Assembly: GCA_000092065.1 (NCBI GenBank)
Contig: CP000582.1
Source: Ostreococcus lucimarinus
Taxonomy: Eukaryota
Direction: 5' to 3' (one strand)
Length of the DNA: 64,000 nt
Shown here: positions 4,268 to 63,143 of the stretch, piece by piece
How the letters are laid out: each line of letters starts with the position of its first letter
Position numbering within the stretch: the stretch's first letter is position 1
Notes under the pieces: generated by a model
Told to the model about the DNA's origin: nothing
What the model saw: only the letters and a program-made list of their open reading frames with translations
Databases searched by the model: none
Made by a program: the position numbers and the translations under genes

Positions 4268-4669
4268 GGTACAAGATTTTGCTTCGTAGCTTGATCGGCG
4301 AACGGCACGCTATGCCGAACTTTAGGGTTTGTCCGTGTCACAGCTGCGACGACGGTGCGACGGCTAGGCGCACTCCTCTGGACTACACTTTTTATGTCCG
4401 AAGTGTGGTATCATTTCTCGTGTCGATGAAAACATACTATATAGCTACTATAACCTATATAGCAACCAATGTGGTACCATACCGTAGTATGACATCATAT
4501 CATACAATATCAGTAAATCACCTAAAAATTACGGACGCACCGGTCGGTCCCCAAATGTCGCCGGGCTGTCGCAGACCCTGCTTGGGATGCAGAATAGCAT
4601 TCATTCGACGACAGTCGTCGGCGTTTGTTTCTTCTTCACGAATATTTCGTCTCTTTTCGCACACGCGGC

Positions 4670-6230: not shown

Positions 6231-7175
6231 GTCAATATGTCGCCTAGATCGATAGACTTAGAAACAAGTTATGAAGCTTGTATTTTTGTTCACGTACCTT
6301 CTCGCACCGGGCCCTTCACATTTCGCATAATCTGTCTATTTTGGTCGTCTAAGAATTTAACACGAACCTGTGTCACCTAACACGGAAATCAGATATAACG
6401 CTCGACGTATAAACTACTGTATTACCTGGCCACGAGAGCCCGTACGACCGATGACCTTCATCACGATTGCTCTACCGAAGAAGTAAGTTTAGGGTTTCTA
6501 GGAATCAAACAACCAAGCGGGCGCGTTGTACAGACACGACGCAAGTAATGCGTTAGAAATAGAACTCACTTTTTTATGACGTCCTGTTTGTATGATCAAA
6601 GTTGCTGATAGTCAGTATCTACGTTTCGTCACGCCGGAGCACGCCAGGTCGCGCACGTTTCCGGGAGGAAGATTTCGGTGGGTTTCAGCGTGCGGTCGTC
6701 GCTTCACGCGCGTCACGTACCATTTTGCGTGACGGTTCTGACCACAGATGGCTGTTTAAAAACGATGAAAGCGAAGCGCAAGCTGTCTCGAGACAGCAGC
6801 TTCGGTATGACGCAGGCAAGGCTGCAAGTAGCACGATCCCGCTGACGGCTTGTAATTTCTTACCTACGTTCGCATTTTTTAACCAAATCGAACTCATATA
6901 CGCATTTATATTATATTATATGGTCTACTAGTACTGTACATCTAAAAAGACTTCACGGACAGATGCCGACGGGCACAGTGCTGCGCAAGCTAAAGCTAGC
7001 CAACAGTCCGCTACGTTTCCAAGCAAAGACTACGTAAAATGCCTCGCACAAACGAGATTGGGAGTTAGCTACAATAGCTACAATGTTTGGGCGTGCACGC
7101 TAACAAATTGCTTTGAGCCAACTGTTCTAAACTTGAAAGAGTAGAAAAAAAGAGTAGAGACACGAACGAGCGAGG

Positions 7176-30268: not shown

Positions 30269-32104
30269 TCACCAAGCGAGAAGATTGATGAATACCGAAC
30301 CTTTCCAACCCTCTGGGTTGCGTACACCGTCCCGACACAGTTGCTTCACAGCTTTTAAACACAGTTCTTTGCTCGCAGTTGAGATGTCTCGATGTCCTTT
30401 CTCAAGCCGTCGAAGACTCAAGAGGGTGCTCAGACGAAAAACGGTTGAACTAGCCAGTTGCTTCAGGAACTCAACCCGATACTTCGTCTCACGCTCGTTC
30501 CTAGACTCGCATCTGTACATTAACCCAACGTGATTTTCGACGATAATACGGTCTACGAGGAACTCTCGCAACTGCTCTCGTACGTCATGACTGACTGAGT
30601 TCGGGTTGTCGTCTGCGAGCAGTTCGTAAATGGCACCGTGAAGCAGAAAAAGTGCACGCAGATAGGGTGCCGGCATACTCAGCCACTTGAATTGCTTGAT
30701 GCGAGTGCGTAGCAAACGAACAAATTCGTGCTTTGACTCTCCGTGTACATATGCACTGCGCATCGCTTTGCAGGCGAGTTGCACTGTAGAATCTGCACTT
30801 TTAACTTGCAAAGATTTCAACGTTGTCGCTATGGAAGCGAGTAGTTCAATCAACGGAATGCACTCTTGTAACGATTTATTTTGCTCGAACTCGAACCACT
30901 CCTTTTGTATCCATATGAGGAAGTCAGCGCACAAGATACTCGCTACTGGATTCTTGAGCACTACTTCTTCGGCAGTACCAGAAGCCAATTTAGAATGGAA
31001 TATATCTACGAAAAACAAACAAAGCTGGACATAATTTGTACATCGTATGGTATGCTCTACACTTGATATCATCATCTGTTTACTTCGTTTCAGATCGTCC
31101 CAAGCTGAGAATAAAAATTGGTTGACAACAGGAGCCGACAGGTTCGTCAATAAGCCGACCTGCCAAGGTTGGAGTTCTGATGTAGAAGATGTAGAAGGGA
31201 TCAAAATACCGCAGGCGCGCGACATATAGTGTGTTTCGATTGGATTTCCTCTAAGAAGCCTTTCAGACTCTGCGTATTCGCTATGCTTAACGTAAACACC
31301 ACTGAACCCCCCCCGCACAGCGCCCTTCACAGCCTTTGAAATGCCGAATTTACTCAACTTTCGCGACCATTGTGCAGATTTGGCGCTATGAGTTCCCATA
31401 TTCAGGTGTGTACTGGTATTGGAATCATTTTCATGAAAGCAGAGGATCAAAGCGAAGATTTCAACAAGAAGAGGAAGGTCATTGTTTATTGGAGAAACAC
31501 ATGCATCCTGAATTACTGCGGAAAGAACCTCCATAAACTGACACTTGAGTAGCAGTCGAAAAAGTTCATGGCGCACGTTACTGCTCTTAGAACCAACGAG
31601 ACTGTGCGAACGCGCTATGAGTAGTAAGTTCCGTACGAGCGTGAATGTTAACTGTAGAATTTTAGTCAATGTTTCGCCATTTTCCAGGTTGCCAGTTTCC
31701 AACTTCCCAAGTGCTTCAGAGACCAATAACATCAACTTGGGGAATATACAGGCGTGATCCAATAGGACACGGAGCGTGGAATTCAGAGCTTGATTTTGTG
31801 CTATAAAATTCGTACTTTCTTTTTCAGGTGGAAGTGTTAAGAAGACAAGAAGTTTCACCACAAGAAAGGACGTCGACAGCTCGCCACAGTGTGTTCCAAG
31901 AAGCGGCAATAAGTCTTTCCCCAGCACGTTCCACGCAATTAGCTGAAGGAAGACACCCCTTTCGCTAGAATCTTTTTGTAGGAAGCGTGTAATGTCCTGG
32001 AGCGATGCATCACATTCTGGATCTTTTCGGTATCCTCCCCGCGTGGTGCGAACACCGATCGTTGAGACCAAACTTAGCAGGTGCGCTTCACTGTACTTCG
32101 ACAT
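30269..32104 (-). CDS. Timeless/Tof1-family replication fork protection protein (N-terminal Timeless domain)
   Basis: Peptide CDASLQDITRFLQKDSSERGVFLQLIAWNVLGKDLLPLLGTHCGELSTSFLVVKLLVFLTLP aligns with the human TIMELESS N-terminus ([47 protein letters not shown]). ATG at 32104. Only ~610 aa before a stop, so it is unclear whether 3′ exons exist. The stop lies ~200 bp from the convergent CHLP stop. Confidence 0.75.
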   Translation of the reverse strand: MSKYSEAHLLSLVSTIGVRTTRGGYRKDPECDASLQDITRFLQKDSSERGVFLQLIAWNVLGKDLLPLLGTHCGELSTSFLVVKLLVFLTLPPEKESTNFIAQNQALNSTLRVLLDHACIFPKLMLLVSEALGKLETGNLENGETLTKILQLTFTLVRNLLLIARSHSLVGSKSSNVRHELFRLLLKCQFMEVLSAVIQDACVSPINNDLPLLVEIFALILCFHENDSNTSTHLNMGTHSAKSAQWSRKLSKFGISKAVKGAVRGGFSGVYVKHSEYAESERLLRGNPIETHYMSRACGILIPSTSSTSELQPWQVGLLTNLSAPVVNQFLFSAWDDLKRSKQMMISSVEHTIRCTNYVQLCLFFVDIFHSKLASGTAEEVVLKNPVASILCADFLIWIQKEWFEFEQNKSLQECIPLIELLASIATTLKSLQVKSADSTVQLACKAMRSAYVHGESKHEFVRLLRTRIKQFKWLSMPAPYLRALFLLHGAIYELLADDNPNSVSHDVREQLREFLVDRIIVENHVGLMYRCESRNERETKYRVEFLKQLASSTVFRLSTLLSLRRLEKGHRDISTASKELCLKAVKQLCRDGVRNPEGWKGSVFINLLAW

Positions 32105-32603
32105 ACGCCCGCTGATAGTACGGGCGTCGGTCTCAAACAATTCAATTTATTTATTGACGAGAAGAGGCGTACACCACGAGTGGGGCGCTACCTATGTCGA
32201 CACGCCGTGAGCACGACACAGTTTTGACAGTTCAATTCAAATTTTTGTCACCAGTTTGGCATTTTGAAAAAAGGTTTTTCCGGGTGTTCGGGGAGGGCAG
32301 TTATGTTATGAGCGGATGTTTTCACACGCCACCAGGTGAGTTTTGTGGAGCACATTTGTCGAGTTATGACTCAAGAATGACCCCGAGCTATGTACATTCA
32401 ATTCTCTTAGACTCCGCGCGTATGAATAAGCACGCACGACATCGACGCGACCTACAAACCCAAGGTTTCTCAAAACCCTGGGTGGTTCCAGTCCAACTGG
32501 AGGTCTACGGCGGAAGGGAGGCTGTGAAGACGCGTCAGTCGAATCAGACGAAAGTCAACACGTGCGAGCCGGTAACGATTGACAGGTCGAAAGCATCAAA
32601 GCG

Positions 32604-34750: not shown

Positions 34751-34830
34751 TGACACCGGTGGGATTTGAACCCACGCTCTTTCGAACCAGGACCTGAACC
34801 TGGCGCCTTAGACCACTCGGCCACAGTGTC
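34751..34830 (-). tRNA. tRNA-Leu (anticodon CAG), 80 nt with long variable arm
   Basis: Minus-strand sequence GACACTGTGGCCGAGTGGTCTAAGGCGCCAGGTTCAGGTCCTGGTTCGAAAGAGCGTGGGTTCAAATCCCACCGGTGTCA resembles eukaryotic Leu-CAG tRNAs. Anticodon loop is TTCAGGT. T7 terminator follows (plus 34742..34748). Confidence 0.85.
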
Positions 34831-34919
34831 TTTTCGCCACAATGGCGCGGATCGTACAATAAATAGCGCACCGTGCGCGCGATTCATATCTATAGCAGGG
34901 GGTTTTTCGGCGAACAAGC

Positions 34920-34992
34920 GCTCAATTAACTCAGTGGATAGAGTGTCAGCTTCCTAAGCTGAGGGTCGCGGGTTCGATCCCCGTATTGAGTG
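34920..34992 (+). tRNA. tRNA-Arg (anticodon CCT)
   Basis: GCTCAATTAACTCAGTGGATAGAGTGTCAGCTTCCTAAGCTGAGGGTCGCGGGTTCGATCCCCGTATTGAGTG folds as a cloverleaf. D-arm is ACTC/GAGT, anticodon stem TCAGC/GCTGA with loop TTCCTAA, T-arm GCGGG-TTCGATC-CCCGT. There is a G1:T72 wobble. A T-rich tract lies downstream (34999..35031). Confidence 0.75.
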
Positions 34993-35104
34993 ACATCTCT
35001 TTCTTTTTTTTTCTTTTTTTTCTTTTTCGTGAAAAATGAAATGGCGACGACTGCGTGGCTGCACTTTCGTCTGGTGCGCTATATTTTGTTATTTATTTCG
35101 CTAT

Positions 35105-35270
35105 TTATCAGTATGTATTACTTTCCAGGCTCTAATGTATGGGGTCTCGATCGCCACGCGCGCGTTGTGGCGTCGTCGCGAGTTATTAGCACTTCGACGG
35201 CGCGCACGTATAAGGCCCGGGAAAGTGATAATGATTAACCTGGGTTTATAAGTCGCGATGGATGCCGTGC
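35105..35270 (+). mobile_element. MITE-like element copy A (Tc1/mariner-type CAGT terminal repeats; 3′ end degenerate), with AAGTCGCGATGGATGCCGTG tail
   Basis: 35107..35210 is ~95% identical to the reverse complement of 61870..62016, apart from an 11-bp indel. Starts TATCAGTATGTATTACTTTCC. The tail ATAAGTCGCGATGGATGCCGTG recurs at 38598..38622. Confidence 0.55.
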
Positions 35271-35794
35271 GTGTTTGTCTGATGCATATTCATACGCGCA
35301 ATAGTCTATATATGTATGCTAGGTCGTGTAGTGTAGATAGACGTTAGCACCACTACAATACAGGATTGTGTTCATCTCCGTTCATCTCCAGTGTCCACTA
35401 CCAGCACACATTACACAAGTGTATACGACCCCCATGTAGGAGCGCCATAATACGAGGAAAGTTCCGTATCTCGCGCGATCGCTCGGCCGCGATCTCGAGC
35501 AAAACCGTATCTATCGTCAGTTTCGACCTCAACATGATCCGAACCGTGAACGTGTCGCTCGGCGCGCGCGCCATCCTCGAAGGAAAGGTGAGTGTAACGT
35601 GTTCATCGAAAATTTCGTGACTCGTCGTACTTGCGCTTTGTTACACAGCGTTTTACATAGCTCGCACGACACTAACGACGATTCTTTCGCTTGGTTGCCG
35701 CAGTCTTTGCGACATGAGAGACGCTCGCGAGCGCCCGTGAGCGTGACGAATAATTCGCGGTAGGTAGCAAAAAAGATTATTTTCGTCGAGTACC

Positions 35795-38288: not shown

Positions 38289-38597
38289 TTTCTTCTTCGA
38301 AAACTTTTCTTGGAAAGGAAAACGACACACGAATCACGCCCGCACGATATTGATGATTACTGTAGTTCGGACCATGGGCGATTGTGTATTCGAACTAAGT
38401 GACAGTCGCCGCCGCTTACGTGCGGTGAAGTCAATTGGTAGACGGATGAGTACAGTGGATTCGATTCCTTGTTCGCATGCACGCTTTTATCTTACGCATC
38501 GCTCGACGTCGATGCGGCTTTCAGCAGGCAAGTAAGCAACGACGTGGTCCGCGAACCGCCGTGAACATTGATGCGGGGATGTATTTAGGCATAAGTC

Positions 38598-38643
38598 GCG
38601 ATGGATGCCGTGTTTTAGGGTTTAGGATTTAGTGCTTGTCTGG
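38598..38643. repeat. fragment of the MITE tail (GGCATAAGTCGCGATGGATGCCGTG) directly followed by telomere-like TTTAGGG repeats (TTTTAGGGTTTAGGATTTAG)
   Basis: Direct match to 35246..35269. TTTAGGG is the plant/green-algal telomere unit, here about 2.5 interstitial copies. Confidence 0.5.
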
Positions 38644-38977
38644 TAGGTTATGATCACGTACATGATACGGCCGAAGAGTGATTATATATTGCATTGTACA
38701 AGTACATTAGCTAGCTAGTACTAGCTCTAGTACCTTGAGTATCTTGAGCAACTACAGTGGGGCTGAAAGTGGAACAAGAAACCGGTCGTTTGTTACCCGT
38801 GAATGGTCTTTTCTTTGCACACATGCGCGTGGAGAGCAGAGCTACCTCGCTTCATTCCCACTTCGCTCAATTCACGCGCGAATCGTTCGCGTGCCTGCTC
38901 GCCAGTATTTGTCTTAGGGGCGCGCCCGCTCGTTCAACGCTACGGCCACAGTCACAAATATCTTCCAAGGTCACGAG

Positions 38978-39790
38978 ATGAACATTTTTCGGTTCGGTGA
39001 GTGGCGTTGGCGTCGTCACTTGAGACCATCTTCCTGTTTTTCGCCGTTTCTTTTTTCCATTCCAATCATGTAGCGAGAATAACATCTTTGTTCGTTGAAA
39101 CAGCCGGTGACATGACGCACCTGTGTAGCATAGTCGTAAGTTGAACGCAATTGAGTTGTATACCTTGACGGACGACTCACTCGATCTCCTTAGGTTCTTC
39201 TGTTGAAAATAGAGGCGACGAAATCGTGTGCTGGAGTTTCGTTGAGGACTCAGGAACTATACGCCGTCGTTTTCGTGAGTAGGTACTTGGATTTGTTTTT
39301 CACTTTCATCTCAGTGTACAACACTGTTATGAAAGTCTTCTTTATTACCAGCAGCTTCTGTATAATATGGTACATGCGGCATCATAGGATAGTATCACAG
39401 ACGTATGATCGTGAACAGGACACATTTCGTGTCGCATTTCTCGTTGTACCGTGCATTTTCCTTGCACTGCTGGTCAACCACGAATTCTCCATGGTGGAAG
39501 TGTTGTGGACTTTTTCAATTTACTTGGAATCGGTCGCGATCTTACCGCAGCTCATCTTGCTGCAGCGGACATTTAATGTTGATACACTGACCAGCAACTA
39601 TGTCTTCTTGTTGGGCGCATATCGCGCCTTGTACATATTAAACTGGCTGTATCGGTATTTTACAGAGCCGGGATATTCACAGTGGATAGTCTGGAGCAGT
39701 GGAACTTTGCAAACTGCGATTTATTGCGACTTTTTCTACTACTATGTCGTGAGTTGGCGAAAAAATGAACGCCTGTCGCTACCTAGTTGA
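38978..39790 (+). CDS. ERD2: ER lumen protein-retaining receptor (KDEL receptor, ERD2), 3 exons
   Basis: Exons 38978..38996 (MNIFRF+g), 39104..39135 (AGDMTHLCSIV) and 39194..39790 (VLLLKIEATKSCAGVSLRTQELYAVVFVSRYLDLFFTFISVYNTVMK..SIYLESVAILPQLILLQRT..YRALYILNWLYRYFTE..). Closely parallels the human KDELR N-terminus ([37 protein letters not shown]..). Introns are 107 and 58 nt (GTGAGT, GTAAGT). Confidence 0.9.
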
Positions 39791-54658: not shown

Positions 54659-54703
54659 GAAGTCGCGTGCGTTTTCGCGGTTAAGTCGCGTGCGTTTTCG
54701 CGG
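54659..54703. repeat. tandem duplication of a 21–22-nt unit (AAGTCGCGTGCGTTTTCGCGG, 2 copies)
   Basis: Seen directly. Shares the AAGTCGCG core with the MITE tail. Confidence 0.8.
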
Positions 54704-58730: not shown

Positions 58731-59060
58731 CGGAACCGACGAAAGCCCGTGTGGAACGAGAACCAACCTTTTGTTAAAAAATTGGCGACGGCCGCAAACT
58801 GTCTTGAATTTCGTAGGAACTGAATACTATCTCGTTTGCTAGGCTTCGGCTTCCGTGTGTTGCGTGCGGTGCAAGGTGGCCGACGTGGTACTTGGAAGAA
58901 AATAAGAAAATTGAATCGAGTAAGCCGAACCCAACCCGTATTATAGCGGCGCTAAAGAGTATGTCTACACTACGAGACTCAAACATACATATAGACTAGA
59001 TATAGACTTGGCGCGTATTCATACGAATAACCATCAGACAAGCGACTTTAAACGCGCGAC

Positions 59061-59483
59061 TTGAAAACTAAACCAAAAAATACAGCAGGATTCGGCTGGT
59101 GCCGCCGCCGTGCAGCCCACGGAAAAGACGCGCCTATCGAAGCGATGCGTGACGAAGGAAGTGAAGGCGACGTGAAAAGCCAACCAAAATTAGAGAAAAG
59201 GTACACAACTTACGTTCGGTTGTACCGTTTCATTGACGTCCTCTGAAGTTCTCCGAAATCCTCAAAGAGTAGGGCATACTACCTGAAGAAGTGTACGACT
59301 GTAAAAGCTCTGTTCTTCCGCCATTTTACATGAACGTTTTCAGCCGAAATGAAGGTCTTACAGCTCATTGAGAAGTATGAGGTACTCAAAAGCAAAGGTG
59401 CAGTTGACAAATTCCTAGCAAAAAAGCGAAAGAGGCGCGCGACTCGAGGAAGAAAATATGTACCCTCTGTTCCCAAGCGCTGA
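59061..59483 (+). CDS. RRP36-like rRNA-processing protein (tentative, multi-exon)
   Basis: Terminal exon (acceptor GTTTTCAG at ~59340) reads ..MKVLQLIEKYEVLKSKGAVDKFLAKKRKRRATRGRKYVPSVPKR*. It resembles the Rrp36 C-terminus (..LEKKFDQLKKSGRIDKFLERRRKKNASKDHRYMP). Upstream exon candidate at 59061..59246. Confidence 0.4.
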
Positions 59484-59562: not shown

Positions 59563-61686
59563 TCAAATGATGTGCACAATTCCATCGTCAACAAATATCT
59601 CGTTTGAGGTGGCCATTCTGTCTAGAATTTGCGTCACCTTCACAGGGTTGAAATGTGGCGACCACGAAGCTGCACTTCTCATAATAGCAGCAAGTTCTAC
59701 GCTGTTCTGACGAGCTCTAAGCTGACTGAAATTTCGTCTGAAAATACTCAGTTCATCTTCTTCTGTAGTCGGACCAGCAGGTAATGACGTGCAGCAGTCA
59801 GACACAATTTGCTCATTTGCTTCTATCCCGTATTTGAGTAAGCGTATGGCTTCGAGTGCATCGATACGCTCAACTTTCCTCGACATCCTTAGTTTTGCGT
59901 GCGCGCTGGCTAAACGGATCATCGTCTCAAGTGTCCGCGCAGTTATTGGTATCGAGCTTGAAGTTCTGGTCTTTTCTGCTTTCGCAAGTCTCCAAGCAGC
60001 ATATTGTTCAGCGATGCACACTTCTGCTTCATTTGTAAGTTTCTGTTCCCAAGGTCGTTCTTTCATGAATCGCAAATACTTTTGAAGATCGCTCTTCGTC
60101 AAAAACCCGCCGTTTGGCTCAGTACATGCGTCGGTGAAACTCCATTGGTTTTCTGGGTCGACTGCGACACTCGCAAGTCGGCTGCTTGTTGTAGCCGCAG
60201 GGCTCCTGTCCTGGCTATGGAGTTGAAGAACATGGGAAGAAATCGTACGATCGACCGTGGCATCAGATATATCATGAATGACAAAAAGTAAATCGAACCG
60301 TGATAAGAGTGAGTCGGGGAGATTGATGTTGCGAGAAAGACTTTGAGCGTGATCGTACGTCCCATACAGTGGATTGGCAGCAGCAACCACACTGCACCTA
60401 GCATTCAGAGATGCCTGTATACCAGCCTTAGAAATAGTAACCGTTTGCTGTTCCATTACTTCATGTATCGCAACCCTATCGATATCATTCATCTTGTCGA
60501 ATTCATCTATGCAGACAACGCCCCGATCAGCAAGCACCATCGCTCCAGCTTCCAGGCGTCTTTCTCCGGTTTCCATGTCACTAGTGATGGCCGCTGTCAA
60601 ACCAACGCCAGACGAACCGCGTCCAGTCGTACTTATAGCAAAAGGCGCAACACCCATGACACATCGCAATAATTGTGACTTCGCAACGGATGGATCACCA
60701 ACAAGTAAACAGTTAATATCACCGCGAATGTGAGTTCCGTTCGGCAAGTTCTTTTCGTTACCTCCTAGGAGGAGGAGCACTAAGGCTTGCTTAATATGGT
60801 TATGACCGCATATAGATGGGGCTAGAGAACGCCCTAGTAGCTCCAAAAGTTGTCTTGGTTGAACTATATTTGCCATTCTGGTCATGTCTTCGACTTCTGA
60901 TATTGTCGGGATGGGTGAAAGTTCCTTCGATAGTTTTTCTACACAATTTGCAACCAAAACAGTCTGGAAAGTACAAGTGTTACTGCGCTGAACTGGAACG
61001 ACTTTGTAAATTCCGATAATGCTCACTCGGTCTCCGGGTTTGCAGCAATCAACTAAATCTTCTTCGAGAATGACATCCACTGACCGTGGAAGCTGACCAG
61101 CAGGTGCTTTCTCTGGCATTTCTTGAATACATATGCGTTGATGATCAACGTACAACGATTCACCGTATTCGATGTCCAAAGAATTTCCGCTTTGATCTCG
61201 CATTGGAAAAGCCGCACCAGTACTCATACCAGTCAGTGCTGTGACATCGCGATAAATCTGTCCTTGGGACAGCTTTCCTGTATTGGGACAGAACTGAACT
61301 ATCTTTTGAACTTTTGGATTGACAGCGGAGCACTTGGTTACAATGCCATGTACTCGAACCATCTTATTGAGGTATGTTGATAACAGCTGTCTCGGAGACA
61401 GTTCATAGCTTCCAAAATTACCAGAAATACCTACACAAAAAGAGCACGGCTTTCTCAACAAAGATTCGGCGGCCACGCTGAGCGCTTTCAGTGCTACTCC
61501 TGGATCGGTTAGTATCCTCTGCGCTAAAGATGAGTCAAATTCTCGCACATGATCGAGTTGCACGATAAATCTGCCTCCCTCAGTTTGCTTTTGTAGCTTG
61601 ACCAAGTATGTGTCTTCGGAAACGGTTTTGCCGTTCCCTGAAATTTCAAATTTTTTTTGAAAAAAGGCTTCGAACTCGCGTTCCAT
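59563..61686 (-). CDS. MCM7: DNA replication licensing factor MCM7, single exon 707 aa
   Basis: ATG at 61686. Walker [12 protein letters not shown] and Walker [13 protein letters not shown]7-specific blocks: ..[24 protein letters not shown].., [62 protein letters not shown] (compare human [35 protein letters not shown]). Confidence 0.9.
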
Positions 61687-61869
61687 GAAGGCGTTCCTCG
61701 CTCGTTGTGTCCAGTTTTAAAGCGCTAGAAGTACTAGCTTTTCACAAGCTCCAATATCAATCGAGCGTGCTCGTAACCGGACTCACTCTTTGAGGCTGCG
61801 CGCTGCGAACGAGGCAGCGAGCGGCGTCCGGGGATTGGTTTTTTGTAAAATTTGTTAGGATTGATATGA

Positions 61870-62016
61870 TATCAGTATATATTACTTTCCACGTCCCCAA
61901 TACGTGCGTACCGTCGGAAGTGCTAATAACTCGCGACGACGCCACAACGCGCGCCTGGCGATCGAGAAGTGCTAGCACCCCATACATTAGAGCCTGGAAA
62001 GTAATACATACTGATA
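61870..62016 (-). mobile_element. MITE-like element copy B (147 bp, Tc1/mariner/Stowaway-type: 20-bp TIRs ATCAGTATATATTACTTTCC / GGAAAGTAATACATACTGAT, flanked by AT/TA)
   Basis: TIRs match 19/20. CAGT..ACTG termini with a TA-like flank (atat|cagt..actg|atat). The internal sequence is ~95% identical to copy A (35107..35210) in inverse orientation. Non-coding, located upstream of MCM7. Confidence 0.6.
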
Positions 62017-62103
62017 TCGGATAGATAGATATCCAACGCCAAAAATGTTTTTCTGGCGTTGGCGTGTCGTACTTGTCGCAGCGTTCGCTTTCTCCACGCG
62101 GCG

Positions 62104-62143
62104 CAAAGCGTGAAGGAAACCTGCAAAGCGTGAAGGAAACCTG
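62104..62143. repeat. tandem duplication of a 20-nt unit (CAAAGCGTGAAGGAAACCTG, 2 copies)
   Basis: Seen directly. Confidence 0.8.
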
Positions 62144-62224
62144 CAGACTCGTTCGCCCGCAAGTGTACGTAATCTCGATTGAGATAAGTTGATACTTGCA
62201 ACCGTTAGTAACTTTTACTGTGAA

Positions 62225-63143
62225 CATGAATGTGCGTATTACTCAGCGGACAGCGTTCCTAACACTAGCCCCTTCGCGCAGCACCGCGTTCAACGGTAGG
62301 AAAGCGTGCAGTAATCGATTCACTCGCATCGCTCGTAAAATCCAAGCGTCGTTGGATTTGACTGAAGATATGGAGCGTATTGTCTCTCGGCGATACGTGG
62401 TTACCTCAACACTTGTGATAGGACAGCTGACACGTGCCTTACCCGCAAAAGCCGTCATGGTATGTATCGAGCGATTGAGCCTAGACCGTGAGCATATCTC
62501 AAAATCGCGTAGGGAATGACGGCAGGGCGCGTTCCAGGGTTCGCCAAGGCCGATACCAATGGCTTTCGAGTGTACACGCGACCCGAGGCCAAAAGCGGTG
62601 GACATGGTGTCGGCTGGAGTGAAATAACACCTTACTCGTTTCAAGCGAATGAGTCATGGAGAGAAACGCCCGTGAGCATTGCTGATCCAGCGGGTACAGA
62701 AATCGATGCTAAATTTGTGAGCGACAGCGATGGAGAGCTGAAAATAATTCTTGCTCCCATCCTTCGTTTTTCAGACAAGGTGAGTGTTTTTTCTGAAAGT
62801 TTGGATGTAAACAAATTGAAACTGAAACAATACATAAAAGGGTGACTTGGATACAATCGATATTAAAGAGCTTGTTTCGTTGAATGCTTTCATAAAAGGA
62901 TTTGGTCCAGAACTATTAGGAAATCCCATACAGGACGAGAACATACTGAGCGCCGAGGAGATTCAAGTAAAAGATAGAACCTACTACATCTACGAACTTG
63001 CAAATCATAGTCTGGTATCAGCAACTACCTGGAATAAAAGAGTTTACATATGTGCCATAACATGCAACTCGTTACAATGGCGAAAAAGTAAATCAAATAA
63101 CATTTCAGTGCTCAAGTCTTTCCAGGTACTTGTCTCCGGCTAG
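62225..63143 (+). CDS. PsbP-domain protein (PsbP-like / PPL-type thylakoid lumen protein) with bipartite presequence incl. twin-arginine signal; 3 exons
   Basis: Exon 1 from ATG 62225 reads MNVRITQRTAFLTLAPSRSTAFNG..EDMERIVSRRYVVTSTLVIGQLTRALPAKAVM, with an RR motif, a hydrophobic core and AKA. Donor GTATGT. Exon 2 reads GMTAGRVPGFAKADTNGFRVYTRPEAKSGGHGVGWSEITPYSF..ILRFSDK (donor GTGAGT). Exon 3 reads GDLDTIDIKELVSLNAFIKGFGPELLGN..DRTYYIYELANHSLVSATTWNKRVYICAIT..W. This is the PsbP-fold pattern. Confidence 0.8.

Follow-up and report, generated by a model that had tools for sequence, protein, structure and literature searches.

MITEs are non-coding elements of less than ~800 bp that are dispersed through genomes, carry terminal inverted repeats and have ends in common with an autonomous transposon. 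Those of the Tc1/mariner superfamily include the pogo/Tigger-derived MITEs, such as Emigrant of Arabidopsis (partner Lemi1) and the human MER2-type Tigger derivatives. The Stowaway MITEs of plants are mobilised by Osmar/mariner-like transposases, have the terminal consensus CTCCCTCCGT and rely on a DD39D partner. A survey of the Mamiellales lists a Tc1/Mariner class and a ~1-kb Tc1/Mariner element near a TFIIA gene on O. tauri BOC1; according to its main text, which does not use the word MITE, O. lucimarinus BOC1 is for the most part free of TEs (bioRxiv 10.1101/2025.04.21.649811).

The window analyzed here, a stretch of 64,000 nucleotides from Ostreococcus lucimarinus (GenBank assembly GCA_000092065.1, contig CP000582.1), contains two related elements, copies A and B. 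They are very probably members of a ~146-bp MITE family that arose by internal deletion of a ~3.52-kb pogo-type Ostreococcus transposon. Like the pogo/Tigger MITEs, the family is non-coding, keeps both repeats of a DDE_1 transposon, duplicates TA and traces to an internal deletion. Unlike them, the Ostreococcus family has a lineage-specific terminal sequence (TCAGTATGTATTACTTTCC...) and a lineage-specific transposase, for which a word-indexed protein search returned one 90%-identity cluster only, and all copies found lie in low-GC outlier DNA. The transposase gene has an intron of 53 nt, a small type that has been reported from the outlier region. With Stowaway the family shares the TA duplication, small size, hairpin-forming terminal repeats and closeness to genes, but it lacks the CTCCCTCCGT terminus and its partner is of the pogo-like DDE_1 type, not DD39D mariner-like. 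A further likeness is to the O. tauri BOC1 element, as one MITE insertion (site 18) and one full-length transposon copy also adjoin a TFIIA-domain gene. The family, its consensus, its target-site duplication and its autonomous partner are not described in the main text of the survey (bioRxiv 10.1101/2025.04.21.649811). The element is of an ordinary type and is newly documented relative to that text; it leaves general knowledge of how MITEs work unchanged.

Genomic setting and structure of the two copies

The GC content of the window is ~46% throughout, and its MCM3 and GPAT proteins are exact matches to XP_001416404 and XP_001416149 of O. lucimarinus CCE9901, the MT- reference strain (PMC7016971). 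Whole genomes of Mamiellales have 48-64% GC, and the low-GC outlier regions on the big outlier chromosome double as a candidate mating-type locus (PMC5082852; bioRxiv 10.1101/2025.04.21.649811; PMC8557840). We infer that the window belongs to the low-GC outlier region of O. lucimarinus chromosome 2.

Copy B occupies 61870-62016 on the minus strand (147 bp). The element proper spans 61872-62014 and is bounded by TA target-site duplications at 61870-61871 and 62015-62016. Its terminal inverted repeats, each ~31 nt, pair 61872-61902 with 61984-62014. Within copy B the inverted repeat measures 24 nt at 96% complementarity, which bears out an earlier description of a clean 147-bp element; in the family consensus the two ends align over ~31 nt with one mismatch and one gap. 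The termini had been given as CAGT..ACTG with AT/TA flanks and are better read as TA-TCAGT...ACTGA-TA, that is, a TA duplication around TCAGT ends. Copy B is 92.5% identical to the family consensus. The only open reading frame across it (61757-62227, 156 aa) also spans unrelated flanks and has no counterpart in the other copies; together with a consensus of just 146 bp, this agrees with the proposed lack of coding capacity.

Copy A is defective. It extends from 35106 to ~35240 on the plus strand and is matched by the family HMM at 35103-35231 (E=1.5e-38). The 5′ TA and 5′ terminal repeat are intact, an internal deletion has removed 10 nt, and decay or truncation has affected the last ~28 nt. 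The 3′ terminus is unrecognisable and runs into a second repeat, R2; the 3′ terminal repeat, previously called degenerate, is lost. Two blocks of copy A align with the reverse complement of copy B: 35106-35145 is identical to its far end over all 40 nt, and 35145-35195 is 98% identical over 51 nt, with the 10-nt deletion between the two blocks. Over its whole length copy A is only ~82% identical to B and 83% identical to the family consensus. An internal identity of ~95%, as first estimated, therefore holds for the first 100 nt and not overall.

Both alignment and a motif count confirm two real copies at these places: a 22-nt terminal motif occurs three times in the window (the left end of A and both ends of B) against 0 expected from 100 shuffles. 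A scan of the whole window with an HMM built from the family revealed no copy beyond A and B. The two share two private substitutions, reading CCAGGCTCT where the family has CCACGCCCT.

Copy A lies upstream of PsaL and beside two tRNA genes, as originally noted. These are tRNA-Leu(CAG) at 34751-34830 (minus strand) and tRNA-Arg(CCT) at 34919-34994 (plus strand), on its upstream side, and copy A begins 112 bp past tRNA-Arg. The downstream gene matches the PsaL family (Pfam PF02605, E=7e-58) and has a putative ATG at 35534. Copy B is located 184-330 bp upstream of the start codon of a helicase gene at 59563-61686 (minus strand). This gene had been named MCM7; it is MCM3, as it scores 572 bits to solved MCM3 chains versus 319 bits to MCM7, and the reference annotation also gives MCM3. 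The window further contains two short, perfect intergenic tandem duplications. One, close to copy B at 62103-62142, consists of a 20-nt unit present twice; in the other, at 54660-54703, the copies of a 21-nt unit are spaced 23 nt apart.

A dispersed family inserted at TA

Public metagenome contigs were scanned with the 20-nt terminal motif TCAGTATRTATTACTTTCCA, which yielded 41 loci. Element sequence is carried by 38 of them; in the other three (L024, L027 and L042) a 20-22-nt motif match stands alone and was treated as chance. Some 15 distinct flank contexts are represented among Ostreococcus-type low-GC contigs. Full-length copies of 146-147 bp are found at the site of copy B and at sites 3, 6, 7, 9, 13, 16, 17 and 18, and a near-complete one at site 4. 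The preliminary description had held that an absence of further copies would argue for a segmental duplication; instead, nine to ten of the contexts contain full-length copies. Most sites are backed by two to five independent assemblies, which makes assembly chimeras unlikely.

Full copies have the termini TCAGTATGTATTAC... and are 91-100% identical to one another (mean 95.5%), with a consensus of 146 bp. Two pairs of sites, 6 with 9 and 13 with 16, have copies that are 100% identical. Copy B is 91-96% identical to the other members and copy A ~82%; the window thus holds two of the older members of the family. Site 3 adjoins a TFIIE/RPC3-like gene. The copy at site 9 is 2.6 kb away from a chloroplast HSP70 open reading frame that is 100% identical to CCE9901 XP_001416211, and reference-type chromosome 2 consequently carries at least three copies (A, B and site 9), a lower bound for the reference strain.

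All genuine matches fall in loci of 45-52% GC, except L037 (33% GC), a 1.2-kb low-coverage contig that has a bacterial-looking open reading frame and may be chimeric. Since the motif scan is blind to flank composition, the family appears to be restricted to outlier-type DNA. A scan of viral contigs with the terminal repeat gave 0 matches, and there is accordingly no sign of a virus-borne copy. Among the open reading frame ends that flank insertion sites, 15 of 17 are 5′ ends, a rough count made at the level of reading frames with introns ignored. The family does, then, insert mostly between divergent genes, in line with the first placing of A and B near promoters. This 5′-end bias reflects where, in a compact genome, the element inserts or persists, and is not evidence of co-option.

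Every full copy is bounded by TA on both sides, with no longer direct repeats, and reads TA-TC(A/C)GTATG...CATACTGA-TA. The duplication of the target can be seen at site 13, where the element lies inside a copy of R2. The filled site reads GATGCT-TA-[element]-TA-TTCATACGC, in wider context ...GTCTGATGCT-TA-[element]-TA-TTCATACGCG. Element-free copies of R2 read GATGCTTATTCATACGC (in longer form GTCTGATGCTTATTCATACGCG) and have one TA. As the paralogous empty site has a single TA, the target-site duplication is TA; two TAs in filled R2 sites versus one in empty sites settle the check for TA duplications that had been suggested.

The autonomous pogo-type partner

An autonomous transposase partner, also proposed for search in the preliminary description, was found. 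MITE positions 1-69 and 57-147 correspond to the two ends of a ~3.52-kb element (L048 4450-7968, L057, and L056-L062). In L048 a distance of 3.5 kb separates the left match (MITE 8-69) from the right match (57-147), and both have the same orientation. The left ~70-72 nt and the right ~90-95 nt of the long element cover the whole MITE, and the junction falls in a run of GCGCGCG. Because its ends are those of the ~3.52-kb transposon, the short element is a MITE formed by internal deletion.

The first exon of the transposase gene encodes 467 aa in L048 and is called at 524 aa elsewhere. It matches Pfam PF03184 DDE_1 at 34.4 bits (cutoff 22, E=2e-8). The DDE_3 match is under its cutoff, that to HTH_Tnp_Tc5 is weak (15 bits, below the cutoff of 22.2; E=0.025), and no Tc1 or mariner transposase family of Pfam is reached at threshold. 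Between this exon and a 335-aa open reading frame lies a 53-nt intron (GTAAGG...CTAG); the predicted spliced protein has ~860 aa. Read by eye, the sequence ...YVVDGCQTH...PPHTSSDMQGED places 35 residues between two D; the DDE_1 match covers 15-123 of 177 positions, and the intron follows. Such DD35D spacing fits pogo-type elements. The initial classification as Tc1/mariner-like thus stands for the superfamily (IS630-Tc1-mariner) and not for Tc1 or mariner proper, as the partner is pogo-like DDE_1.

A look-up of the exact protein identified ten more contigs, most of 3-3.7 kb, with intact termini flanked by TA; this length is what assembly breaks at a repeat would produce. In at least four flank contexts, the full-length copies show 99.4-99.97% identity, and this near-identity argues for recent activity. 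L048 is the one full-length copy seen with both flanks, and its left terminus is damaged, with the first 9 nt missing. At site 18 a MITE (L041) and a full-length element (L056) occupy TA sites 5 bp apart, and the two contigs are 98.9% identical over 754 nt from the common end of the element into the flank.

The short copies keep both ends of the long element, which would have been joined within the GCGCGCG stretch. In the proposed mechanism, the transposase would bind the ~31-nt terminal inverted repeats (TCAGTATGTATTACTTTCCACG.CCCTAAT), cut the element out and paste it into a TA dinucleotide, duplicating the TA. The short copies encode nothing and would therefore depend on transposase supplied in trans; we infer that the predicted pogo-type transposase may mobilise them in this way.

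The 16-mer AGGTATAGCTCGCAAT is present directly outside the right end of the L057 copy and also outside the truncated left end of the L048 copy (L048 4420-4460 compared with L057 150-210). This common 16-mer points to aberrant transposition or to recombination between copies.

A second, unrelated pogo-like transposon is present in one environmental strain at L004 11335-13893 (JACLAB010016240.1), which corresponds to ~51.9 kb of the window. Its protein, called at 869 aa, contains HTH_Tnp_Tc5 and DDE_1 domains, and it is inserted at TA by a BOP1-like gene. The window and other contigs are without this transposon, so that it represents a true insertion polymorphism. As a candidate partner of the MITEs it was rejected: its transposase is 24% identical to that of the ~3.52-kb element, and its visible terminus, CTAGTGATTTCG, is unlike that of the MITE.

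The R2 repeat beside copy A

Copy A had been assigned an extra tail, ATAAGTCGCGATGGATGCCGTG. This tail is an exact 22-mer at 35248-35269 that recurs, as had been seen, although at 38591-38612 rather than at 38598-38622 (0 such recurrences expected). It does not belong to the MITE. The tail at 35248-35269 is the 5′ part of a complete copy of R2, a ~155-nt repeat with the 5′ block GAGAAACCTCGGGTTTATAAGTCGCGATGG... and the 3′ block ...CTATAATACGGGATTGGGTTCA. This copy (35229-35380, plus strand; nhmmer E=1e-44) is located ~150 bp before the ATG of PsaL and is co-oriented with it. R2 also occurs without a MITE in the window, as a copy at 58921-59067 (minus strand, E=2e-27) and a partial copy at 32408-32474 (minus strand, E=1.7e-9). 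The piece at 38591-38650 (plus strand), taken at first for a MITE tail fragment, is likewise an R2 fragment. Here the 22-mer is followed by telomere-like TTTTAGGGTTTAGGATTTAG, and the fragment is interrupted by TTTAGGG-like units, in agreement with the TTTAGGG-type repeats initially placed directly after the recurring tail. Outside the window, R2 is found at L039 1857-2013, L033 6615-6912, L036 5667-5847, and L048 7967-8035 and 4245-4281.

R2 is always upstream of a gene and co-oriented with it, and in three cases its 3′ end lies 137-155 bp from the start codon. The copy at 58921-59067 ends 155 bp upstream of the start of a histone deacetylase open reading frame (58766), the partial copy at 32408-32474 precedes a 623-aa open reading frame at 30269-32140, and the fragment at 38591 precedes an ER-retention receptor gene (39203-39790). 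TATA-like motifs are present at both ends of R2. Insertions of the transposon or the MITE into R2 or next to it are found at three different TA positions. This promoter-proximal repeat has received the transposon in at least three independent events and is a recurrent landing site.

Rfam was searched over the whole window at gathering thresholds and, at E<=10, in the neighbourhood of copy A with its R2; the matches were only tRNAs and one miRNA at chance level. In the E<=10 search of 35050-35600, which covers copy A and the adjoining R2, there was no R2 match. RNAalifold gave -7.6 kcal/mol for six R2 copies with an unfavourable covariation term and no conserved fold. With this weak energy and unfavourable covariation, R2 is not a structured RNA. 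Candidate identities are a dispersed promoter/5′-UTR module or an old orientation-biased mobile element. The presence of R2 upstream of unrelated genes may bear on the unusually high expression of outlier-region genes.

A telomeric reading of 38613-38633 was rejected: there is a single occurrence of the exact 13-mer, and similar sequences are no more frequent than expected by chance. The 9-mer telo-box AAACCCTAA is present three times in the window (38613-38633, 4322-4330 and 6489-6497) versus 0.41 expected, and 1 of 100 shuffles reaches three. The stretch is a short interstitial telo-box-like motif, not a telomere, and is probably a promoter motif rather than telomeric DNA. A telo-box-like motif was also observed beside site 6 (right flank of L055) and, as GGGTTTA, at the 5′ edge of R2.

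Alternative explanations

Copies A and B could be relics of one intergenic segment spread by segmental duplication or gene conversion: the 64-kb window contains only two copies, these share two private substitutions, and insertion polymorphism was not seen at either. Such an origin is exceedingly improbable in the face of ~15 sites with unrelated flanks and sharp identical boundaries, a TA duplication confirmed against a paralogous empty site, and a transposase-encoding element with the same termini. The same termini speak against a family of small-RNA or structured ncRNA genes in place of a mobile element. Copy B does fold as a long hairpin of -28.7 kcal/mol (as single-stranded DNA; z = -3.8 versus shuffles), but the stem is the terminal repeat itself, these ends also enclose a transposase gene, TA duplications border the copies, and no Rfam family was found in the window at gathering thresholds or over 35050-35600 at E<=10; this reading is very unlikely. 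Also very unlikely is a single longer mobile unit composed of the MITE and an R2 tail, with the piece at 38591 as its fragment. R2 abuts copy A from 35229 onwards, and R2 or its fragments adjoin MITE or transposon ends at three other loci. However, the junction varies, with the MITE before R2 in the window, inside R2 at ~58 in site 13, and the long element of L048 at R2 position ~68 in inverted orientation. Moreover, R2 occurs by itself at two places in the window (58921-59067 and 32408-32474) and in both L039 and L036, and nine full MITE copies are without R2 at either end.

The location of the window copies raises a further alternative, the promoter co-option first suggested as a possibility, in which selection would maintain them, whatever their origin, as exapted regulatory parts of the MCM3 and PsaL promoters. 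Copy B is situated between divergent genes, 184 bp ahead of the MCM3 ATG, and all contigs examined retain it, among them a contig with a flank at 93% identity to the window; insertions of the family are strongly biased to the 5′ regions of genes. Yet the flanks of copy B are as conserved as the copy (~99.9%), in which case retention reflects low population diversity only; a 5′ bias is typical of DNA transposons that insert into open chromatin in a compact genome; and copy A is decaying. Exaptation, a conjecture from position and retention, is therefore unlikely. Overall, descent of both copies from the pogo-type transposon by internal deletion is strongly preferred.

Age and mobility

Copy B is present at its site in 10 of 10 environmental contigs with an identical MCM3 protein and in L050, the contig whose flank is 93% identical to the window. 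Its flanks are as invariant as the copy, ~99.9% across contigs, and its retention hence reflects low population diversity only. Copy A is present in all three contigs found to span its site (L017, L025 and L047). Copy B is an old, structurally intact, population-fixed copy, and copy A is an older, crippled one that is unable to move.

At site 18, reached through the neighbouring ATPase gene in six contigs, four contigs contain the complete MITE and a fifth (L071) ends inside it. The sixth (L070, Tara) departs from the others ~35 bp before the MITE, continues into an unrelated foldback repeat and then ends. This foldback element (L070 9050-9183) has perfect ~46-nt terminal inverted repeats (GGAAAAATTTATATATCGCCCCTTTAGAGAGTACCTACACACATGA...) and may represent a second MITE family.

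A search of environmental contigs for an empty allele at A, B and site 18 revealed none, and mobility is thus deduced from paralogous sites and copy identity. The recent mobility first proposed applies to the family, in which some MITEs at separate sites show 100% identity and the autonomous copies at least 99.4%. It does not extend to copies A and B, which are present in all contigs examined and have diverged from the family core; the comparison of strains suggested at the outset disclosed no insertion polymorphism at either.

Mating-type haplotypes

O. lucimarinus is a model minimal eukaryote whose outlier region has been described as almost TE-free (bioRxiv 10.1101/2025.04.21.649811). An apparently still-active pogo-type transposon and its MITE progeny slightly correct this picture, and the family supplies markers for typing strains and mating-type haplotypes.

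Most other copies are on environmental contigs whose genes are 73-83% nucleotide-identical to the window genes and follow a different order. The MGDG-synthase at site 6 is 64% identical to the window copy, 75% identical to an O. tauri allele and, at 99% identity, closely matched by an MMETSP transcript. Ostreococcus gametologs are reported to cluster by mating type and not by species (PMC8557840), and MT+ of O. lucimarinus is reported to co-occur at sea with MT- and to outnumber it (PMC7016971). Because the site-6 MGDG-synthase shows the reported gametolog pattern, the divergent contigs would appear, with a fair though far from complete likelihood, to be the MT+ haplotype of O. lucimarinus; a sister species is the less likely source. 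The HSP70 beside site 9 is identical to that of the MT- reference strain.

From these contigs arises a broader, tentative proposal, which is somewhat doubtful as it stands: the family would be confined to the low-GC outlier compartment and common, to 100% identity, to two ancient non-recombining mating-type haplotypes. If this were true, the transposon would be a molecular record, with a date, of sex that took place recently in natural populations; the element would also target outlier-region chromatin, with R2 as a preferred landing pad. Should copies span both haplotypes, their near-identity could time genetic exchange in a species in which sex has never been observed.

Two further differences among contigs were observed. 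Contigs L052, L015 and L033 have the MITE of site 13 in common and differ in their histone-deacetylase segment (L052 7877-9462; L015 10056-10496; L033 11078-11518), which is 94.9% identical to the window in one contig and 82.8% in the others. This difference suggests that the two divergent haplotypes form mosaics or undergo gene conversion, or that a third lineage is present. Upstream of an RPB2-like gene, contigs with identical MCM3 differ in structure (L009 2657-4450; L006 1195-3396): one such contig contains a gene for a 597-aa DDE_Tnp_4 (Harbinger-type) transposase together with an XPG-like gene, and another contains an SNF2 helicase gene, which indicates strain-level rearrangement.
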